DNA of 64,000 nucleotides from Chiloscyllium plagiosum. Taxonomy: Eukaryota. A program made the position numbers and the translations under genes. The stretch is from assembly GCF_004010195.1 (NCBI RefSeq), contig NC_057753.1, positions 5,853,488 through 5,917,487 on the forward strand, given 5' to 3'. Under the pieces are notes generated by a model. The model ran no database searches, was not told the DNA's origin, and worked only from the letters and a program-made list of their open reading frames with translations. Shown in pieces: positions 1 to 56,300 of the stretch (the stretch's first letter is position 1; every line of letters begins with the position of its first letter).

Positions 1-1166
1 GGTGATAGTATAGAGGGCTACTGCAGGCTGCAGCACGACATAGATAGGATGCAGAATTGGGCTGAGAAATGGCAGATGGCGTTCAACCTGGATGCGTTGG
101 CACATTGATTAGTACTGCTGCTTCACAGCGCCAGAGACCCGGGTTCAATTCCCGCCTCAGGCAACTGTCTGTGTGGAGTTTGCACATTCTCCCCGTGTCT
201 GTGTGGGTTTGCTCCGGTTTCCTCCCACAGTCCAAAAATGTACAGGTTAGGTGAATTGGCCATACTAAATTACCTGTAGTGTTAGGTGAAGGGGAAACGT
301 AGTGGAATGGGTCTGGTTGAGTTGCACTTCAGCCGGTCACTGTGGACTTGTTGGGCCGAAGGGCCTGTTTCCACACTATAAGTAATCTAACCTAAATGCG
401 AAGTGATGCATTTTGGAAGGTTGAACTGGATGCTGAATACAGGATTAAGGACCGGATTATTGGCAGTGTGGAGGAGCAGAGGGATCTGGGTGTGCAAGTG
501 CATAGATCCCTCAAAGTTGCCACCCAAGTGGATAGGGTTGTTAAGAAAGCATATGGTGTTTTGGCTTTCACTAACAGGGAGATCGAGGTTAAGAGCTGCG
601 AGGTTTTGCTGCAGCTCTACTAGTCCCAGGTGAGACCACACTTGGAATATTGTGTCCAGTTCTGGTCGCCCTATTTTCGGAAAGATACAGAGAGTGCAAA
701 GAAGGTTTACCAGGATGCAGCCTAAACTTGCCTTATGAAGAAAGGTTGATAAAGCTTGGACTTTTCTCTCTGGAGAGAAGGAGGAAGAGAGGAGACCTCA
801 CCAAGATATACAAGATAATGAGAGGAATAGATGGAGTCTATAGCCAGAGACTTTTCCCCAGGGCAGGATTGACTCGTACGATAAGTCATAGTTTGATGTT
901 ATTAGGAGGAAGGTGTAAAGGAATCGTCAGAGGTAGGTTCTTTATACAGAGAGTTGTGAATGCGTGGAATACGTTGCCAGCTGTAGTGGTGGAAGCGAAG
1001 TCATTGGGGACGTTTAAGCGACTGCTGGACATGCACATGTATAACAGTGAGTTGTGGGGTGCATAGGTTAAGTTACTATATTTTACATTATGATTAAATC
1101 TCGGCACAACATCGTGGACCAAAGGGCCTGTTCTGTGCTGTACTTTTCTATGTTTTATGTTCTATG
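1..1166 (+). mobile_element. CR1-type LINE, 3' part (RT C-terminus and tail), split by a SINE
   Basis: Translations VEEQRDLGVQVHRSLKVATQVDRVVKKAYG and YEERLIKLGLFSLERRRKRGDL..YKIMRGID..FFIQRVVNAWNTLP are typical CR1 ORF2 C-terminus. Ends in a ttctatgt-like tail at ~1146-1166; stops and frameshifts present. Confidence 0.9.
96..392 (+). mobile_element. tRNA-derived SINE (HE1/V-SINE type)
   Basis: B-box gggttcaattccc, V-domain core gtgtggagtttgcacattctccccgtgtctg..ctccggtttcctcccacagtccaaa, and a CR1-derived tail gggccgaagggcctgtttccacact. Inserted inside the CR1. Confidence 0.9.
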
Positions 1167-3735: not shown

Positions 3736-3805
3736 CTGGAATCCCAATAGTTGCAAGTAAAGGAAAGAAAATGGAAAACACCAAATCATTTGGTGATATG
3801 CGCAT
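3736..3805 (-). CDS. Orphan class A GPCR (GPR139/142-like), copy C, exon 1 only; exon 2 presumably left of the window
   Basis: 70-nt exon MRISPNDLVFSIFFPLLATIGIP+G followed by donor GTGAAG. Same length, phase and upstream elements as exon 1 of the two complete paralogs. Confidence 0.78.
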
Positions 3806-3854: not shown

Positions 3855-3891
3855 ATTTATAAGCAACCTCGAGCTCCAGGGGTTGAATTAG
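3855..3891 (-). promoter_or_regulatory. Proximal promoter of GPCR copy C: homeodomain + O/E(EBF)-like composite and TATA box
   Basis: Minus strand CTAATTCAACCCCTGGAG (3874-3891) and TATAAAT (3855-3861), 69 and 50 bp from the ATG as in the other copies. Confidence 0.6.
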
Positions 3892-19889: not shown

Positions 19890-20791
19890 TTAGAATTTAG
19901 CAAATAATCTCAGCGGATATATCAAACCATTCTTCAACTCGTCTCTGAATTTACTCTGCGTACCAGCATAGATAAAGGGATTGATGCAGGAACTTAGAAA
20001 CTGAAGCATATACCCGGATTCTTCCAGGATAAAAGATGAATCACCGTAATCTGAACGTGAATAATAAGCAACTTTTGCAATTCGTGAATACAGTACTGTT
20101 ATAAAAAGTACCGAATATAGCAAGGTAAAACTACCTGAAATGCCAAAAAGTAAAACGATGGATTTTTTCCTCTTCTCCATCTCTGGGTCACTCTGATTCT
20201 CTCCATTACTCTGGGTCCGGAGTCTCCTGCGAGCTCTATTAGCTGCTAGGATGTGCCTGACAGTCAGAATATTGAGCAGTAAAATCAGAACGAATGGGAG
20301 ACAGGGAGCTAAAATGGACCGAATCAAATCGTATGCAGTCCATGCTGGTGTTGTACTAAATAGTTGCTTTATAACGCAGAACCAGGGCACGTTATCAATT
20401 ACGTACAATGGTTCAAATATAAAATACAAGAATACATTTTTTAGACAGCTCAGTGTGCAAACACTAGCTATAGCCCACGTTGCTATCTTCTCTGTACAAT
20501 ATCTAATTTTCAGCTTGTGGCAACAAATGGCCACAAATCGATCAAAGGTGAAAGCTACTGTTAACCAGGCAGAACTGTCAATAACTGCATAAATTAGGAC
20601 TACACGGAGACTGCATACTGGTGTGATGGATAGGAAACTAAATGGGAAATAAATACCAGAAATCCGATTTATAATGACAGTAACAATGATCACCAAGAGA
20701 TCTGCTAGCGCCATGGACACAACGTAGTAAATGATACATCCAGAGAGACCACATCTTTTTCGGTAAAGGATCACTACCACTGCCAAATTAG
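19890..20791 (-). CDS. Orphan class A GPCR (GPR139/142-like), copy A, exon 2 (323 aa with exon 1)
   Basis: Intact 7TM-type ORF: MALADL (TM2), C3.25, FDRFVAIC (TM3), ECL2 PWFC, PCLPF (TM5), CINPFIY (TM7). Acceptor tttctgttacAG|CT AAT joins the phase-1 exon 1 in frame to give ..GIPANLAVVVIL. Confidence 0.93.
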
Positions 20792-22183
20792 CTGTAACAG
20801 AAATAATAAAGTCAGGAAATAGTGATAATTATGTTTCAGAGCGGGAGAGCAATAAACTTATTGGTCTGACATTCCACAAAATAATTTGAACAGTATATTG
20901 CACGAAGCCTGTATTGTTGTGGTCTGTTTATGAGCTGGAAACATGCCTCACACTTCCTTCGGAGTTTCTGTTAACATTAAGGCAATCATTTAATGTTACG
21001 TCAATGACAAAGGAGTAGGTAATTAAATAATATGGTACAATGAAAAGGTTGCCTTTACAGACAGGTTGAAAGAAACACAGCAATAAACTGTCGAAATAGT
21101 ACATATGCAAAAAAAGTCATATATTTGATACAACAGCACATGTGAGGTCTTTTGTGATAAGTCGTTTTAACTTGAAAGTTAGAGGATGAATTGTACAAAT
21201 TATTAAAATAAAACAAGGAACAGCAGGTGCTGGCTATCTGATTCACACAAAATCAAACATCGCTGGACAAACTCAACAGTTGTGCCAGCATCTATGGTGA
21301 AAAGGCAGACTCTCTCCGCAGATGCACGAAGACCTGTAGAGTATCATAGCTTCATACAGCATGGAACCGGTCCGTAGGTCCAAACAGTCGAAGCCGAACA
21401 TGATCCCAAAATTAAACATTCCCACCAGCCTGCTTCTGGCTAATATCCCTCCAAACACTTCGTATTCATGTACCTATCCAAACGTATTTTAAATCAAGTA
21501 ATTGTACCAACATTCACAATACGTTCGTCACACACGCGAACCACACCCTGAGCAAAATAACAAATAATCACTTCTGTGCAGTAGATACTTGTTTTCAAAA
21601 TTATGTCTCGTACGTACATGAAAACGTAGTTTCAATAATCGTTAATATAAAAAAGTTAGTAGTTAAGTTAATGCTCATATCGATGAATCAACAGTCAATT
21701 GGAAAGAGCAAAGCTTGCCTTACTCATGTAGTGTTTTATGCATAAAGATCAAAACTGCTGTCCTGTTCGAATTAGGTTCCATTTCCAAGTAATCAACAAA
21801 TGGGCACTGATGTATTGTACTTGTCAGTATCTCGGTGTTTACAATATTTTATTCATTTAATTCCTTCATTAATTTGGGTTGGATGTGATCGGTGCTTCAA
21901 AATCGATAAGCAATCAGTTACTTGGGCAAATTGCTCCGCAAATTTCACTTTTTTAAAAAAATTGACAATATACTTTCAGACTTGCACCGACATTCAAAAA
22001 TGATAATTAACCTCCAGTCCCAATTCAACACCATAACTGTTCAACATTTATATCAAAAAAGACAATGCAATGATGCACATATAGTGTTTACAGCTCAAAA
22101 CATGGTAAAACTACGTTACACATGCCAGCGACCTGTTAAGTCAGCCATAGTAAAACGCCCAATAATGTAGCAGAAATCAATTT

Positions 22184-22345
22184 ACAGAGGAACCTCGATT
22201 ATGCGAAGGACACAGACGGTGAGTATTTTGTTTGGTTAATCAAACGCTGGATAATTGATGGCAAATAACATAGTTAACCACACATCGGGACCTTGTGATC
22301 TTGTTTGGATCATCCAAAATTCGGTTAATTGAATGATATTTAACC
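22184..22345. mobile_element. pogo/Tigger-like MITE remnant in the GPCR intron
   Basis: ta|cagaggaacctcgattatgcgaa resembles pogo/Tigger terminal repeats at a TA site. The segment is absent from the paralogous introns (~2760, ~43300). Confidence 0.5.
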
Positions 22346-22936
22346 GAGAAGTCAAACGTACTGACTGCAGCAATGTTGTAGCACTTCAACATTCACAGCA
22401 TTATAACTTTAGAAAGTTGACTCACAGTAGTATTCCTATAACACAATAATGCAACACTGTACATTGAGATGGTCGGACTGAAGAAGCAAACTAACTTGCT
22501 ACAATGCCTGAAGAGAGTAGATGTGGAACAAGTTTTCCCACTGGTGAAATGATCAAGAATGAGAGGAAAGAAAGATTCAACAATTGAAGAAAAAGGAAAT
22601 ATTAGAGAAAATAAAAATTGCACGCAACTGCATGTTAAGGTTTGCAATAAACTACCTGACAGTATATTGGATGCAGTGCCTTTGCAAGGATAGTTTTGTT
22701 TTTAAATCAAAGCATTGATACATGGAAGACATCCATGAAAATTTATTTACGACAAAGAAAAATTATGTAAGAGAGGGGAAATATTTCCTGGTGAAGTGAA
22801 AAGATGCATTGTTTAAAGAAAAAACAGAATAATTGACATTACAAACAAAATATCCGCGCTGGGAAAATGGGCGCTTGGTTGTAAAGGAAACATAATGCAA
22901 CAAACCAACGAGTCAGCTAGTAATCCAATACTTTAC

Positions 22937-23006
22937 CTGGAATCCCAATCGCTGCAAGCAAAGGATAGTAAATGGAAAACAACAGGCCTTTTGGTGATAT
23001 GTGCAT
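22937..23006 (-). CDS. GPCR copy A, exon 1 (N-terminus and start of TM1)
   Basis: MHISPKGLLFSIYYPLLAAIGIP+G then donor GTAAAG. Peptide identical to copy B, with 8 synonymous and 0 non-synonymous codon differences. Confidence 0.9.
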
Positions 23007-23055
23007 TTCGACCAGAGGTTTCAAGCACATTCCCCGTTAAGCTGCATTTTGCCGC

Positions 23056-23092
23056 ATTTATAAACAATGTCAGACTCCAGGGGTTTAATTAG
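23056..23092 (-). promoter_or_regulatory. Proximal promoter of GPCR copy A: homeodomain + O/E(EBF)-like composite and TATA box
   Basis: Minus strand CTAATTAAACCCCTGGAG (23075-23092) and TATAAAT (23056-23062). Confidence 0.62.
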
Positions 23093-30240: not shown

Positions 30241-33200
30241 AGAAGAACAAAGAACAAAGAAAATTTACATCCCAGGAACAGGCCCTTTGGCCCTCCAAGC
30301 CTGAGCCGTTCCAAATCTACTGGCTAAACCTGTCGGTCAATTCCTAAGCATCTGTATCCCTCTGCTCCCCACCTACTCATGCATCTGTCCAGATGCATCT
30401 TAAATGAATCTTCCGTGCCTGCCTCTACCACCTCTGCTGGCAACGCGTTCCAAACGCCCACCACCCTCTTTGTGAAGTACTTGCCGCGTGTATCCCCTTT
30501 AAACTTTCCACCTCTCACCTTGAAAAATGACCTCTCGTTACTGAATCCTTCACCCTGGGAAAAAGCTTATCTCTATCCACCCTGTCTATACCCTTCATGA
30601 TTTTGTAAACCTCATTCAGGTCCTCCCTCAATCTCCTTTTTCCTAATGAAACAATCCTAACCTACTCAACCTTTCTTCATAGCTAGCAAATTCCATAACA
30701 GGCAACATCCTCGTAAACCTTCTCTGCAACCCCTTCAATGTGTCCACATCCTTTTGGTAATGTGGCGACCAGAACTGTACACAGTATTCTAAATGCACTG
30801 AACCAATGCCTTGTACAACTTCAACATGACTTGCCAGTTTTTATACTCAATACCCCGTCCAATGAAGGCAACCATACTATATGCCTTCTTGACCACTCTA
30901 TCCAGCTGTGCAGCAACCTTCAGAGTCCAATAGTCCTGCATTCCCGGATCTCTCTGCCCATCAACTTTTCCCAAGGCTCCTCTGTTCATTGTATAGTTCA
31001 CTCTGGAATTAGTCTTGCCTAAATGCCTGAACTGAAATCCATCTGCCACTTTTCCGCCCAACTCTCCAGTCTATCTATATTCTCCTGTATTCTCTGACAG
31101 TTCCTTGTGTTTTCTGCTACTCCACCAATCTTCGTGTCACCTGCAAACTTGATGATCATACCAACAGTGTCCTTTTCCAAATCATTTAGGTATACCATTG
31201 GTCACCTTTCTCCATTTCGAGAAACTCCCTTCTACTACTTTCTGTTTCCTGTTGCTCAACGAGTTCTTTATCCACCTCGCTAGAACACCCTGGACACCAT
31301 GTGACTTCACTTTCTCCATTAGTCTACTATGGGGAACTTTATCAAACGCCTTACTAAAGTCCATGTATGTGACATCAACAGCCCTTCCTTCATCTTTCAA
31401 CTTGGTCACTTCCTCGAAGAACTCTATTAAGTTGGTAAGGCACGATCTCCCCTGCACAAAACCATGTTGCCTATCACTGATAACCTCATTATTTTCTCAA
31501 TATAAATAGATCCTGTCCCTCAGTACCCTCTCCAGCAACCTTCCCACCACAGACATCAGGCTCACTGGTCTGTAGTTACCCAGAATATCCCTACTACCCT
31601 TCTTGTACAGGGGGACAACATGAGCAAACTTCCATTCCTCCAGCACCTCACCTGTATTTAAGGCTGCCACAAAGATCCCAGCTATTTCCTCTCTCACCTC
31701 CCTCAGAAACTTGGGATAGATCCCACCCGGTCCTGTGGATTTGTCCACATTCATAACCTCTAGCCTACCCAATACATCTTCACTACGTATCTCAACGCAA
31801 TCCAGACTAATCAAGCTTCTATCTCTAATCTCAAGATTCCTCATGTTCCTCTTCTCAGTGAACACTGATGAGTAATCACTCAGAACCTCACGCATTCTCT
31901 CAGGTTCGACACACAGCCTTCCTTCATTATCTTTTAGTGGACTAATCCTTTTCTAGTTGCCAATTGCTTCTTATATAAGAATAAAATACTTTGGGATTCT
32001 CCTTAATTCTGCTCACTAAAGCTATTTCATGACCCCTCTTAGCCCGCTTGATTCCTCATTTAAGTCTTGCCCGACTCTTCTGAAATTCATCCAGGGCCCG
32101 TTCTGTTCTTAACTGCCTGGACCTTATGTATGCTTCCCTTTTCCTCTTGGCTAGTCGTACAATTTTTCCTGTCATCCACGATTCATGAATCTTGCCCTTC
32201 CTATCCTTTGCCTTCAACGGGACATGTCTACCCTGCACTTTCTTTTACCTATCTTTGAAAGCCTCCCAAATATCAAATGTGGACTTCCTCCAATCAACAT
32301 TTCCAAGCTCCTGCCTAATTTTGATATAATTTGCCTTGGCCCGGTTTAATACTCTGCCCTTAGGAGCACTCTCAAAGATCCCAGCTATTTCCTCTCTCAC
32401 CTCCCTCAGAAACTTGGGATAGATCCCACCCGGTCCTGTGGATTTGTCCACATTCATAACCTCTAGCCTACCCAACACATCTTCACTACGTATCTCAACG
32501 CAATCCAGACTAATCAAGCTTCTATCTCTAATCTCAAGATTCCTCATGTTCCTCTTCTCAGTGAACACTGATGAGTAATCACTCAGAACCTCACCCATTC
32601 TCTCAGGTTCGACACACAGCCTTCCTTCATTATCCTTTAGTGGACTAATCCTTTCTCTAGTTACCAATTGCTTCTTATATAAGAATAAAATACTTTGGGA
32701 TTCTCCTTAATTCTGCTCACTAAAGCTATTTCATGACCCCTCTTAGCCCACTTGATTCCTCATTTAAGTCTTGCCCGACTCTTCCGAAATTCCTCCAGGG
32801 CCCGTTCTGTTCTTAACTACCTGGACCTTATGTATGCTTCCCTTTTCCTCTTGGCTAGTCGTACAATTTTTCCTGCCATCCACGATTCATGAATCTTGCC
32901 CTTCCTATCCTTTGCCTTCAACTGGACATGCCTACCCTGCACTTTCTTTTACCTATCTTTGAAAGCCTCCCAAATATCAAATGTGGACTTCCTCCAATCA
33001 ACTTTTCCAAGCTCCTGCCTAATTTTGATATAATTGACCTTGGCCCAGTTTAATACTCTGCCCTTAGGAGCACTCTCAACTTTATCTACGAGTACTCTAA
33101 AACTTACAGAATTGTGATCACTGTTCCCAAAGAAATTCCCACCACACCTTCTACCACTTCTCCTCGCTCGTTCCCCAGTACCAGGTCCAATGTGGCCCCT

Positions 33201-39898: not shown

Positions 39899-40818
39899 TC
39901 AAAGAGTTGAACATTTTCGCATATTAGCAAATAACCTCAGAGGATATTTCACCCCATTCTTCAACTCGTCTCTGAATTTTCTCTGCGTTCCAGCATAGAT
40001 AAACGGATTGATGCAGGAACTTAGAAACTGAAGCATATACCCGGTTTCCTCCAGGATAAAAGATGAGTCGCCGTAATCAGAACGTGAATAATAAGCACCT
40101 TTTGCGATTCGTGAATACAGTGCTGTTACAAAAAGTAGTGAGTATAACAAGATAAAACTACCTGAAATGGCAAAAAGTAAGATGATCGATTTTTTCCGTT
40201 TCTCCATTTCTGGGTCATTCTGAATTTCGCCAGTGCTCTGGGTCCGAAGTCTCCTGCGAGCTCTATTCGCTGCTAGGATGTACCTGACAGTCAAAATGTT
40301 GAGCAGTAAAACCAGGATGAATGGGAGACAGGGAGCTAAAATGGTCCGAATCAAATCGTACGCAGTCCATGCTGGTGTTGTATTAAATAGTTGTTTTATA
40401 ACGCAGAACCAGGGTACATTATCAATTGTGTACAAAGGTTCAAATATAAAGTATAAGAATACATTTTTTAAACAGCTCAGTGTGCACACAGTTCCTAAAG
40501 CCCACTTCGCTATCTTCTCTGTACAATATGTAATTTTCAGCTTGTGGCAACAAATGGCCACAAATCGATCAAACGTGAAGGCAACCGTTAGCCAGGCAGA
40601 ACTGTCAATGACCGCAAAAATTAGGACTACACGGAGACTGCAAATTGGTGTGATCAATAGGAAACTGAATGTGAAATAAATAACAGAAATTCGATTTATG
40701 ATGACAGTAAAAATGATCACCAAGAGATCTGCCAGCGCCATGGACACAATGTAGTAAGTGATACATCCAGAGAGACCACATCTTCTTCGGTAAAGGATCA
40801 CTACCACTGCCACATTAG
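39899..40818 (-). CDS. Orphan class A GPCR (GPR139/142-like), copy B, exon 2 (329 aa with exon 1)
   Basis: Intact ORF with the same motifs as copy A (about 37 aa differences by hand count, plus a 6-aa longer C-terminus). Acceptor ttctgttacAG|CT AAT GTG. Confidence 0.93.
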
Positions 40819-44521: not shown

Positions 44522-44591
44522 CTGGAATCCCAATAGCCGCAAGTAAAGGATAGTAAATGGAGAACAGGAGACCTTTTGGTGATATATGCAT
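44522..44591 (-). CDS. GPCR copy B, exon 1
   Basis: MHISPKGLLFSIYYPLLAAIGIP+G, donor GTAAAG, 70 nt, phase 1. Confidence 0.9.
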
Positions 44592-44640: not shown

Positions 44641-44677
44641 ATTTATAATCATTGTCAAACTCCAGGGATTTAATTAG
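44641..44677 (-). promoter_or_regulatory. Proximal promoter of GPCR copy B: homeodomain + O/E(EBF)-like composite and TATA box
   Basis: Minus strand CTAATTAAATCCCTGGAG (44660-44677) and TATAAAT (44641-44647). Confidence 0.62.
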
Positions 44678-53389: not shown

Positions 53390-56300
53390 CATAAAACATA
53401 GAACAATACAGCGCAGAACAGACCCTTTTTGCCCTCAATGTTGCACTGGCCTGTGAACTACTCTAAGCCTATCACCCTACACTATCCCATCATCATAGAA
53501 CGTAGAACAATGCAGCACTAAACAGGCCCTTTGGCCCTTGAGGTTGTGCCAACCTGTGAACTAATCTAAGCCCATCCCCCTACACTAACCCACCAACATC
53601 CAAGGTTTGTTTCAGTCTCCCTAATGTGGCTGAGTTAACGACATTGGAAGGCAGGGCATTCCATGCAATTACCAATCTCTGAGTAAAGAACCTGCCTCTG
53701 ACATCTGTCTTAAATCTATCACCCCTCAATTTGTAGCTACGCCCCTCATACAAGCTAATGTCATTATCTTTGGAAAAATACTTTCACTGTTACCCTATCT
53801 AATCCTCTGATCATCTTGTATGTCTCTATCAATACCACTCTCTGCATAAAGAACCTGCCTCAGACATCTGTCTTAAATCTATCACCCCTCAATTTGTAGC
53901 TATGCCCCTCATACAAGCTAATGTCATTATCTTTGGAAAAATACTTTCACTGTCTACCCTATCTAATCCTCTGATCATCTTGTATGTCTCTATCAAATCC
54001 TCTCTTAGCCTTCTTCTTTCCAATGAGAACATACCCAAGTCTCTCAGCCTTTCCTGATAAGACCTTCCCTCCAGACCAGGCAACATTCTGGCAAATCTCC
54101 TCTGCACCTTTTCCAATGCTTCCACATCCTTCCTGTAATGGGGCGACCTGAACTGTACACAATATTCTGACTGAGGACACACTAGTGTTTTGTACAGTTG
54201 CAGCATGACATCATGGCTCTGAAAGTCAATCTCTCTACCAATAAAACCTTACACATGGTATGCTTTCTTAACAGTACTATCAACCTGGGTGGCAACTTTC
54301 AGGGATCTATGTACATGGACACCAAGATCCCTCTGCACACCCACATTACCAAGAATCTTTCCATTGACCCAGTATTCTGCTTTCCGGATGTTCTTCCCAA
54401 AGTGAATCACCTCGCATTTATCTGTATTGAACTCAATTTGCCACCTTTTAGCCCAATTCTGTAGTTTCATCCAAGTTCCCCTGCAACCTGTAACATTCTT
54501 CCAAACTGTCCACTACTCTACCGACTTTAGTATCATCTGCAAACTTACTAACCCATCCACCTATGCCTGCGTCCAAGTCATTTATAAAAATGACAAACAA
54601 CAATGTTCCTAAAACAGATCCTTGTGGCACACCACCAGCAACAGGACGCCAGGCTGAACAGTTTCCATCAACCACCAGTCTTTGCATTCTTACAGAAAGC
54701 CAGCTTCTAATCCAAACTGCAAAATTACCTTCAATCCCATGCCTCTGCATTTTCTCCAAAGGCCTAGCATGTGGAACCTTATCAAAGGCTTTACTGAAGT
54801 CCATGTACACCACATCAACTGCCCTATCATCATCCACATGCTTGGTCACCTTCTCAAAAAACTCAATGCAGTTTGGGAGACATGGCCTGCCCTTGACGAA
54901 TCCATGTTGACTATTTCCAATCAAATTGTTGCTTGCGAGATGATTATAAATCTTATCTCTTATTATCCTTTCCAAAGTGTTTCCTACCACAGACGTAAGG
55001 CTCACTGATCTATAATTACCTTGGTCATCTCTACTGCCATTCTTGAACAAGGTCACAACATTTGCAATCCTCCAGACCTCTGCTACTAAACCTGTAGACA
55101 ATGATGATGCAAAGATCAAGGCCAAAGGCTCAGCCATCTCCTCCTTGATTCCCAGAGAATTCTCAGAAAAATCACATCCAGCACAATGGACTTACCTACT
55201 TTCAAACCTTCTAGAACTGATAACACCCCTCCTTACTAACCTCCATCCATTCAAGTCTAATAGCCTTTCAGTCTTCTTCTCTACAATATTCTCCTTTTCC
55301 TGATGAAAACAGATGAGAAATATTTGTTTGGCACCCCTCCAATCTCCACAGGTTCTACACACAACTTCCCACTTCTGTCTTTGACAGGCCCTATTCCTAC
55401 CCTAGTCATCCTTGTATTCCTCACATACCTACAGAAAGCTTTAGGGTTCTCCTTTATTCTATTTGTCAAAGACTGCTCATGTCCTCTCCTTGCTCTTCCT
55501 AACTCTCTCTTTAAAACCTTCCCAGCTGACCTGTAACTCTCCATCACCTCATCTGAATCATCTCACCTCATTGTCACAAAAGCCTTCCTCTTCCAATTAA
55601 CAAGAGATATAATTTCTGTCATAAACCATGGTTCCCTTACCTTATCACTTCCTCCCTGCCTGACAGGGATATACCTATCAAAGACAAGCAATGTCAATTC
55701 CTTAAATCAGCTCCTCATTTTGATTGTCCCCATGCCCTACGTTTTGCTGCCCCATTCTATGCCTCCTCAGTCTTGTTTAATCGCATTATAATTGCCCTTC
55801 CCTCATCTATAACCCTTGCTCAGTGCCATGCGCCTATCCTTTTCCATCACGAATCTAAACAAAATCGAATTATGGTCGCTGTCTCCAATGAGCTCACTAC
55901 AACTTAATCAAAAACCTGGCCTGGTTCATTACGAAGTACCAGATGCAGTGTGGCCTCCCCTCTTTTCGGCCATTCAACATACTGTGTCAGGAAACCCTCC
56001 TGCACACATTGGACAAAAACTGATCCGTCTGATGTACTAGGGTCATAGGGATTTGTTAAAGTCTCCCAAAATGCCCACTCTGTTCCTTCCACTCCTGCCC
56101 AGAATCGATTTGCCAATCCTCTCGTCCACATACCTGGAACTCTGCAGAGGGTGTACAAAACTTACAGCAATGTGACCTCTCCTCTCCTGTTTCTAACCTC
56201 AGCCCATACCACCTCAGTAGACGAGTCTTTGTCAAACGTTCTTTCAGCCACCGTTATACCATCCAATAGTAACAAAGCCACACCTCCCCTTCTTTTACCA

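Follow-up and report, generated by a model that had tools for sequence, protein, structure and literature searches.

The window, by which we mean the whole 64-kb stretch of shark DNA analysed here, carries on its minus strand the first exons of three receptor genes, A, B and C, and the second exons of B and C. Each of the three ATGs opens a 70-nt first exon that ends in a GT donor in phase 1, with MHISPKGLLFSIYYPLLAAIGIP in genes B and C, and the exon 2 open frames, which match Pfam 7tm_1, start 2.1 kb (B) and 3.7 kb (C) downstream, after a pyrimidine tract and an AG. Ahead of each ATG lie a TATA box and, further upstream, an 18-mer made of a homeodomain-type box and a box resembling the O/E (EBF) site. 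The features are as follows:

3736-3805, minus strand: gene A exon 1; the broken exon 2 of this gene falls outside the window
3855-3861, minus strand: gene A TATA box, at a fixed distance from the ATG
3874-3891, minus strand: gene A 18-mer, TAATTC replacing TAATTA; 19.3 bits
19890-20791, minus strand: gene B exon 2, the remaining seven-transmembrane (7TM) receptor, intact, stop included; Pfam 7tm_1
22937-23006, minus strand: gene B exon 1, 70 nt, MHISPKGLLFSIYYPLLAAIGIP, phase 1, GT donor; N-terminus matches RefSeq shark models
23007-23055, minus strand: gene B stretch from TATA box to ATG; start predicted at about 23030, leader about 25 nt
23056-23062, minus strand: gene B TATA box (TATAAAT); 0.94 bits per column family-wide
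23063-23074, minus strand: gene B spacer, 12 nt, with a weak CRE/AP-1-like TGACAT; length kept, sequence not
23075-23092, minus strand: gene B 18-mer, with CTAATTA as the homeodomain-type box and CCCCTGGAG as the O/E-like one; 23.4 bits with a matrix from 103 other paralogs
39899-40818, minus strand: gene C exon 2, intact; one unbroken match (L208), Pfam 7tm_1
44522-44591, minus strand: gene C exon 1, ATG at 44591
44641-44647, minus strand: gene C TATA box, at a fixed distance from the ATG
44660-44677, minus strand: gene C homeodomain-type plus O/E-like 18-mer; 23.1 bits

The receptor genes and their family

The exon structure and the Pfam matches identify these, at the level of sequence, as two-exon genes for G-protein coupled receptors (GPCRs) of class A, belonging to a shark 'GPR139-like' expansion, with B and C intact. 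The second exon of gene A (L134:8203-9101, minus strand) sits 0.9-1.8 kb before window base 1, and its reading frame is interrupted: a stop takes the place of the R in the DRF motif, the frame shifts after roughly residue 117, and one more stop and one more shift occur in the TM6 region. The preliminary description had spoken of three GPCR promoters; this wording holds for the intact genes B and C, but because gene A exon 2 is broken, one of the three belongs to a pseudogene.

A protein search with the window receptor returned 2113 proteins at E≤0.001, the best of them 82% identical, and the closest relatives were hundreds of shark proteins with automatic names such as 'probable G-protein coupled receptor 139'. 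RefSeq models from three other sharks begin at the same MH..PKGL methionine and have the same MH..PKGL..IYY..GIPANLAV join between exon 1 and exon 2. Like GPR139, the products are class-A 7TM receptors, and PDB chains of GPR139 align across the whole exon 2 product, but they do so at E=4e-4 only, so that GPR139 does not outrank PAR4, CCK-A, TRH and other class-A receptors. A close sequence relation to GPR139 was rejected on this account, the match being similar to that with unrelated class-A receptors; on these shark genes 'GPR139' is a label rather than a statement of orthology, and the relation to true GPR139 is remote. Full-text searching of the literature found no paper on this shark class-A receptor family.

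In a DNA run, the part of gene B exon 2 that encodes TM3 and the DRF motif (20376-20586) has a summed contig depth of about 35,000, as against about 24 in single-copy flanks, which fits very many family copies, although the depth figure is not a copy number. Two repeats in intron 1 of gene B (21338-21571 and 22157-22390) also have very high depth, in DNA and RNA runs, reaching thousands at 80% likeness, and are probably a short interspersed element. Retroelement remnants lie between the genes at 54448-55191, 31497-31952 and 32245-32706 (all minus strand) and at 593-1066 (plus strand). The first of them matches Pfam RVT_1 (E=1.8e-23), while the second and third are near-duplicate open frames with no Pfam match.

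Two boxes and a TATA box at fixed distances in the window

The 18-mer, CTAATT[C/A]AA[C/T]CCCTGGAG, occurs in exactly three copies in the 64-kb window, all on the minus strand, when up to two mismatches are allowed; three or more matches to the pattern were found in none of 100 dinucleotide shuffles. TAATT is present in all three copies, and the O/E-like box begins with TCCC in copy C and with CCCC in copies A and B. From the final base of the 18-mer to the A of the ATG (3805, 23006 and 44591 in A, B and C) the distance is 69 nt at all three, and TATAAAT ends 50 nt ahead of the ATG, again in three of three. When the window was scored with a position weight matrix built from 103 other paralogs in the same genome, the three 18-mers reached 19.3-23.4 bits, and the next best segment on either strand of the 64 kb reached 12.3; the scan found no further copy of the module on either strand of the window. 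These results bear out what the preliminary description had reported, namely an 18-mer at three places on the minus strand and an invariant spacing of both the 18-mer and the TATA box from the ATG.

That description had also warned that the copies share ancestry, and rightly so. The upstream regions of genes A, B and C are 78-85% alike over about 300 nt, and the 18-mer is invariant at 16 of 18 positions, as against 152 of 261 (58%) neighbouring non-coding columns (P=0.0055 for a single placement of the 18 columns, uncorrected for scanning). Among the three window copies alone, therefore, the 18-mer is barely better kept than its flanks, and by themselves the three copies prove little.

Conservation of the module across the family

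Since conservation within the window hardly exceeds what shared ancestry would give, the family was sampled without using the promoter, with a pattern drawn solely from exon 1, at its coding end. This pattern has 124 matches in the genome and none in a reversed control; the sample consists of 105 unique promoters out of these 124 places, with the other 19 places standing outside it, and spans at least 15 contigs. In a MAFFT alignment of the 105 promoters, a procedure that can sharpen shared motifs and for which an ungapped scan and the fixed distance to the ATG are only a partial answer, the homeodomain box CTAATTAT carries 0.76 weighted bits per column, the O/E-like box CTCCCTGGAGCC 0.92 and TATAAAT 0.94. 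The corresponding values are 0.44 for the spacer between the O/E-like box and the TATA box, 0.34 for 92 columns upstream, 0.34 for the leader and 1.10 for coding exon 1. The 18-mer averages 0.86 bits, while the maxima for windows of 18 columns are 0.54 upstream (74 windows) and 0.46 in the leader (29 windows). The preliminary description had named, as an outcome that would speak against it, a motif no better conserved than neighbouring DNA across divergent paralogs; the boxes are clearly better kept.

The ungapped scan, made with a leave-one-out matrix, set the promoters against 2000 control segments: 80 of the 105 exceeded the 99th percentile of these controls, and 74 exceeded their maximum. 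Position and spacing are rigid: 54 of the 80 modules start 85-87 nt before the ATG, and the segment from the homeodomain box to the TATA box measures 36-37 nt in 81 of the 105 promoters. TAAT[TG] is present in 86 of 105, as against 42 expected from shuffles. Moreover, the module is restricted to this family, in that a strict pattern for the whole of it has 15 matches in the 3.56-Gb genome (one in the control), every one followed by a family first exon, with 55-57 nt between TATA box and ATG. A search for the module in metagenome contigs gave five matches, which we attribute to chance because none has a family exon behind it.

Twenty-five of the 105 promoters fell under the matrix threshold, some of them being a short-spaced variant from contig C48 and others being without the module. 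In the C48 subfamily (L105-L116), TAATTG directly abuts CTCCTGGGAG, and most members score below the threshold although their genes are intact. Four near-identical copies on contig C7 (L032-L035) resemble first exons, have no module and mostly have no ATG at the usual place, and behind three of them no exon 2 follows within 8 kb; they may be relics, or else a subfamily of different build.

Slower change in the boxes than in their flanks

Because paralogs share descent, rates of change were compared in independent sister pairs, with six homeodomain, nine O/E-like and seven TATA columns counted as boxes. Over all 42 pairs the boxes differ at 143 of 906 positions (0.158) and the flanks at 1139 of 5294 (0.215), an odds ratio of 0.68 (p=6e-5), and the spacer changes at a rate of 0.25. 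The difference is 77 of 520 (0.148) versus 859 of 3082 (0.279) in the 24 pairs in which both members have an intact exon 2 (odds ratio 0.45, p=6.5e-11), with 0.30 in the spacer and 0.132 in coding exon 1; in the 12 pairs with a broken or missing exon 2 the boxes change at 0.156 and the flanks at 0.228 (odds ratio 0.63). By these rates, purifying selection acts on the three boxes about as strongly as on coding exon 1.

The spacer keeps its length of 12 nt but not its sequence. In the columns that correspond to 23063-23074, many of the 105 paralogs read TGAC(A/T)TCA, which we take to resemble a CRE/AP-1 site, and the C48 subfamily reads TCACGTCA. As a conserved site this sequence was rejected, as the spacer changes at 0.25-0.30 and the flanks at 0.22-0.28.

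The status of exon 2 was read from the 8 kb behind 100 first exons: it is intact behind 60 of them, broken behind 23 and not found within reach behind 15, two being incompletely covered. The module is present ahead of 51 of the 60 intact genes, 18 of the 23 broken ones and 6 of the 15 first exons without exon 2 within 8 kb. Intact and broken genes do not differ significantly in the presence of the module (51/60 versus 18/23, p=0.52), and so this comparison gives no support for selection. As the module is about as frequent in broken copies as in intact ones, its presence in a single copy says nothing about that copy, and in any one of them, gene A included, it may be there by inheritance alone.

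A likely proximal promoter

Conservation of the boxes across the family, together with the rates in sister pairs, argues for a real, selected family promoter, and the module is likely to be the proximal promoter shared by a large family of shark orphan class-A GPCRs. Two constrained boxes that stand 12 nt upstream of a TATA box, itself set at a fixed distance from a short leader, make up the anatomy of a compact proximal promoter. The 18-mer forms the upstream half of a module of 36-37 nt (CTAATTR, 3 nt, TCCCYNGAG, 12 nt, TATAAAT) placed about 86 to 50 nt before the start codon. The preliminary description had taken the 18-mer and the TATA box to be promoter parts, which agrees with their place directly ahead of real first exons, whose MH..PKGL methionine is shared by the RefSeq shark models.

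In the arrangement that we propose, a homeodomain protein of the Q50 type is predicted to bind beside an O/E(EBF)-like factor, or another factor that reads a palindrome, just upstream of TBP. Transcription would begin some 25-30 nt past the TATA box, which for gene B means close to 23030; this position follows from the usual distance between TATA box and start. The two upstream boxes would be the factor binding sites, and would confer expression restricted to certain cell types.

In the family alignment, a weakly kept TTCAGTGAAnTGCAG is found 12-30 nt after the TATA box, where the start is expected, and may be an initiator. The CA of GCAG in the majority sequence comes 30 nt after the TATA box's first T; in the subfamily to which the window genes belong, the element is displaced. 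Exon 1, the promoter and the exon junction were covered by no reads from a presumed RNA contig set and two single-cell RNA runs bearing the same species label, which is no test of expression. At 95% likeness the RNA runs gave repeats only, and at 80% they gave partial reads, less than 90% alike, on a conserved part of exon 2, as well as intronic repeats.

Which factors, and other readings of the boxes

If the module is a promoter, the identity of its factors can be approached through the resemblance, pointed out in the preliminary description, to the Lhx2/Ebf code of odorant receptor (OR) genes. In Greek Island enhancers, Lhx2 and Ebf sites are stereotypically adjacent, with the Ebf part relaxed to runs of pyrimidines and purines, and this composite is enriched there relative to OR promoters (PMC5608512, in the text available). 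A composite is required for the activity of the J element, a class I enhancer (PMC7804114), and the accessible part of PMC11643329 places the Lhx2 and Ebf sites 1 bp apart, describes the composites as depleted from OR promoters and gives, as one search pattern, WWAHDRRBHHHHNDRDD. In mouse OR promoters, O/E and homeodomain sites are enriched and TATA boxes occur in a subset, the O/E core of the MatBase matrix V$NOLF being TCCCyngrgar (both from the available portion of PMC3247239).

At the register of the module, 23 of the 80 modules fit the composite pattern without a mismatch and a further 37 have a single one. Almost all mismatches fall in the 2-nt linker, and the pyrimidine and purine blocks fail in three cases only. 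The window copies depart from the published pattern, with two mismatches in A and one each in B and C. As a statistical test the pattern was set aside as too degenerate, since it has 117 exact matches in the 64 kb, or 1.8 per kb. The part TCCCYNGRG of the V$NOLF core is found in 37 of 80 modules and the full core TCCCYNGRGAR in none of the 80. Compared with the Sfaktiria probe (TAATTGA followed by TCTCCAAGGA), the family majority sequence (TAATTA followed by TCTCCCTGGAG) is one base tighter. The CTAATTR box fits matrices of the Lhx, Dlx, Cart/Alx, Nkx6 and other classes. The EBF palindrome is TCCCNNGGGA; at the position of its G, 85 of 105 family promoters carry A, and the next two positions are C/T and C.

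It is possible, though we would not put our weight on it, that the boxes are Lhx2 and Ebf sites by which the OR code would drive an overlooked olfactory repertoire in olfactory sensory neurons. Order, orientation and register all fit the published composite, the Sfaktiria probe resembles the family majority sequence, nearly half of the modules have the shorter part of the V$NOLF core, and the family is a large one in tandem arrays, in animals for which few ORs are reported. On the other hand, the composite pattern that they fit is very loose, the full core is absent and the G of the palindrome is mostly replaced, the homeodomain box suits many classes of factor, and mouse composites, as far as the cited text goes, mark enhancers and are depleted from OR promoters. 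In addition, the available parts of two studies of the shark nose (PMC11979771, PMC10116579) name V2R as the principal family and say nothing of GPCRs like these. The olfactory assignment thus falls short of proof, because the O/E half is atypical and the homeodomain box generic. Of the likeness drawn in the preliminary description, order, orientation and, to within one base, register hold, but the O/E core is incomplete; the tight mouse composite marks enhancers and is described as depleted from OR promoters (PMC11643329, available text). The bolder form of this idea, that the 'GPR139-like' genes are the large odorant-receptor repertoire missing from elasmobranchs, each with a Greek-Island-type Lhx2/Ebf composite in its own promoter, seems to us unlikely.

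The boxes could also be real sites for another pair of factors, for instance a Q50 homeodomain protein with an Ikaros-type or other dimer that binds CTCC..GGAG, acting outside the olfactory system; we consider this doubtful, as we do the candidate cells that would go with it, namely another sensory type or a neuronal, immune or germ-line type. The family consensus CTCC-CT-GGAG is a perfect inverted repeat unlike that of EBF, the homeodomain box is generic, and in OR promoters there is overlap between O/E-like sites and Ikaros-type matrices (yyTGGGagr), as the accessible text of PMC3247239 has it. However, no candidate fits better than O/E, and tight adjacency of a homeodomain site and an O/E-like site has documented precedent, in the available text of the sources cited here, in the olfactory system only.

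That the motif has no function and was kept because the copies are young duplicates would suit the near-background conservation in the window, the retention of the motif in pseudogene A and its equal presence in broken and intact copies. This explanation is disfavoured by the pair test, in which the boxes, but not the spacer, change half as fast as the flanks, and subfamilies spread over at least 15 contigs have retained the boxes amid saturated flanks; we regard it as very improbable. Least probable of all, hardly to be entertained, is a transcription start far upstream with the module inside an intron or leader: many copies do have an AG 3-4 nt before the ATG that could be an acceptor, but the two bases at that place in intact gene B are CG, one would not expect an intron to keep a TATA box at a fixed distance, and the strict module always lies 55-57 nt before the family ATG.

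Significance and comparison with known systems

According to the available parts of PMC11979771 and PMC10116579, sharks possess very few ORs and depend on V2Rs in the nose; their genomes still hold a very large, unstudied family of class-A receptors. If the module is the family's proximal promoter, as we favour, a selected element of such rigid form would offer a compact reporter element, a search key for further members and a concrete hypothesis about the regulators. Should the factors be Lhx2 and Ebf, the family would become a prime candidate for shark odorant receptors, with the composite working at promoters, and if the genes were indeed the missing repertoire, the composite logic of receptor choice would be older than, or independent of, the OR family and its distant enhancers. 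Should the factors be others, the module would still be a clean case of conserved promoter grammar in a fast-duplicating family.

Given the looseness of the published pattern, the incomplete O/E core, the generic homeodomain box and the location at a promoter, the resemblance to the olfactory code is real in form but not diagnostic. With the proximal promoters of mouse ORs, as far as they are covered by the available text of PMC3247239, the shark module has in common a multigene family of receptors and homeodomain, O/E-like and TATA elements near the start, which in the shark is a predicted one. There, however, the sites are statistically enriched at loose positions, whereas most shark family members have the rigid 36-37-nt layout; the shark O/E-like box never reaches the full matrix core, and the shark receptors are not ORs. 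The composite of the Greek Islands and the J element (PMC5608512, PMC7804114, PMC11643329, each in the portion available) shares with the shark module a TAATT box followed by runs of pyrimidines and purines in the same orientation, and a register that agrees to within one base. That composite belongs to distant enhancers and is reported as depleted from OR promoters, whereas the shark module stands 12 nt from the TATA box of each gene.
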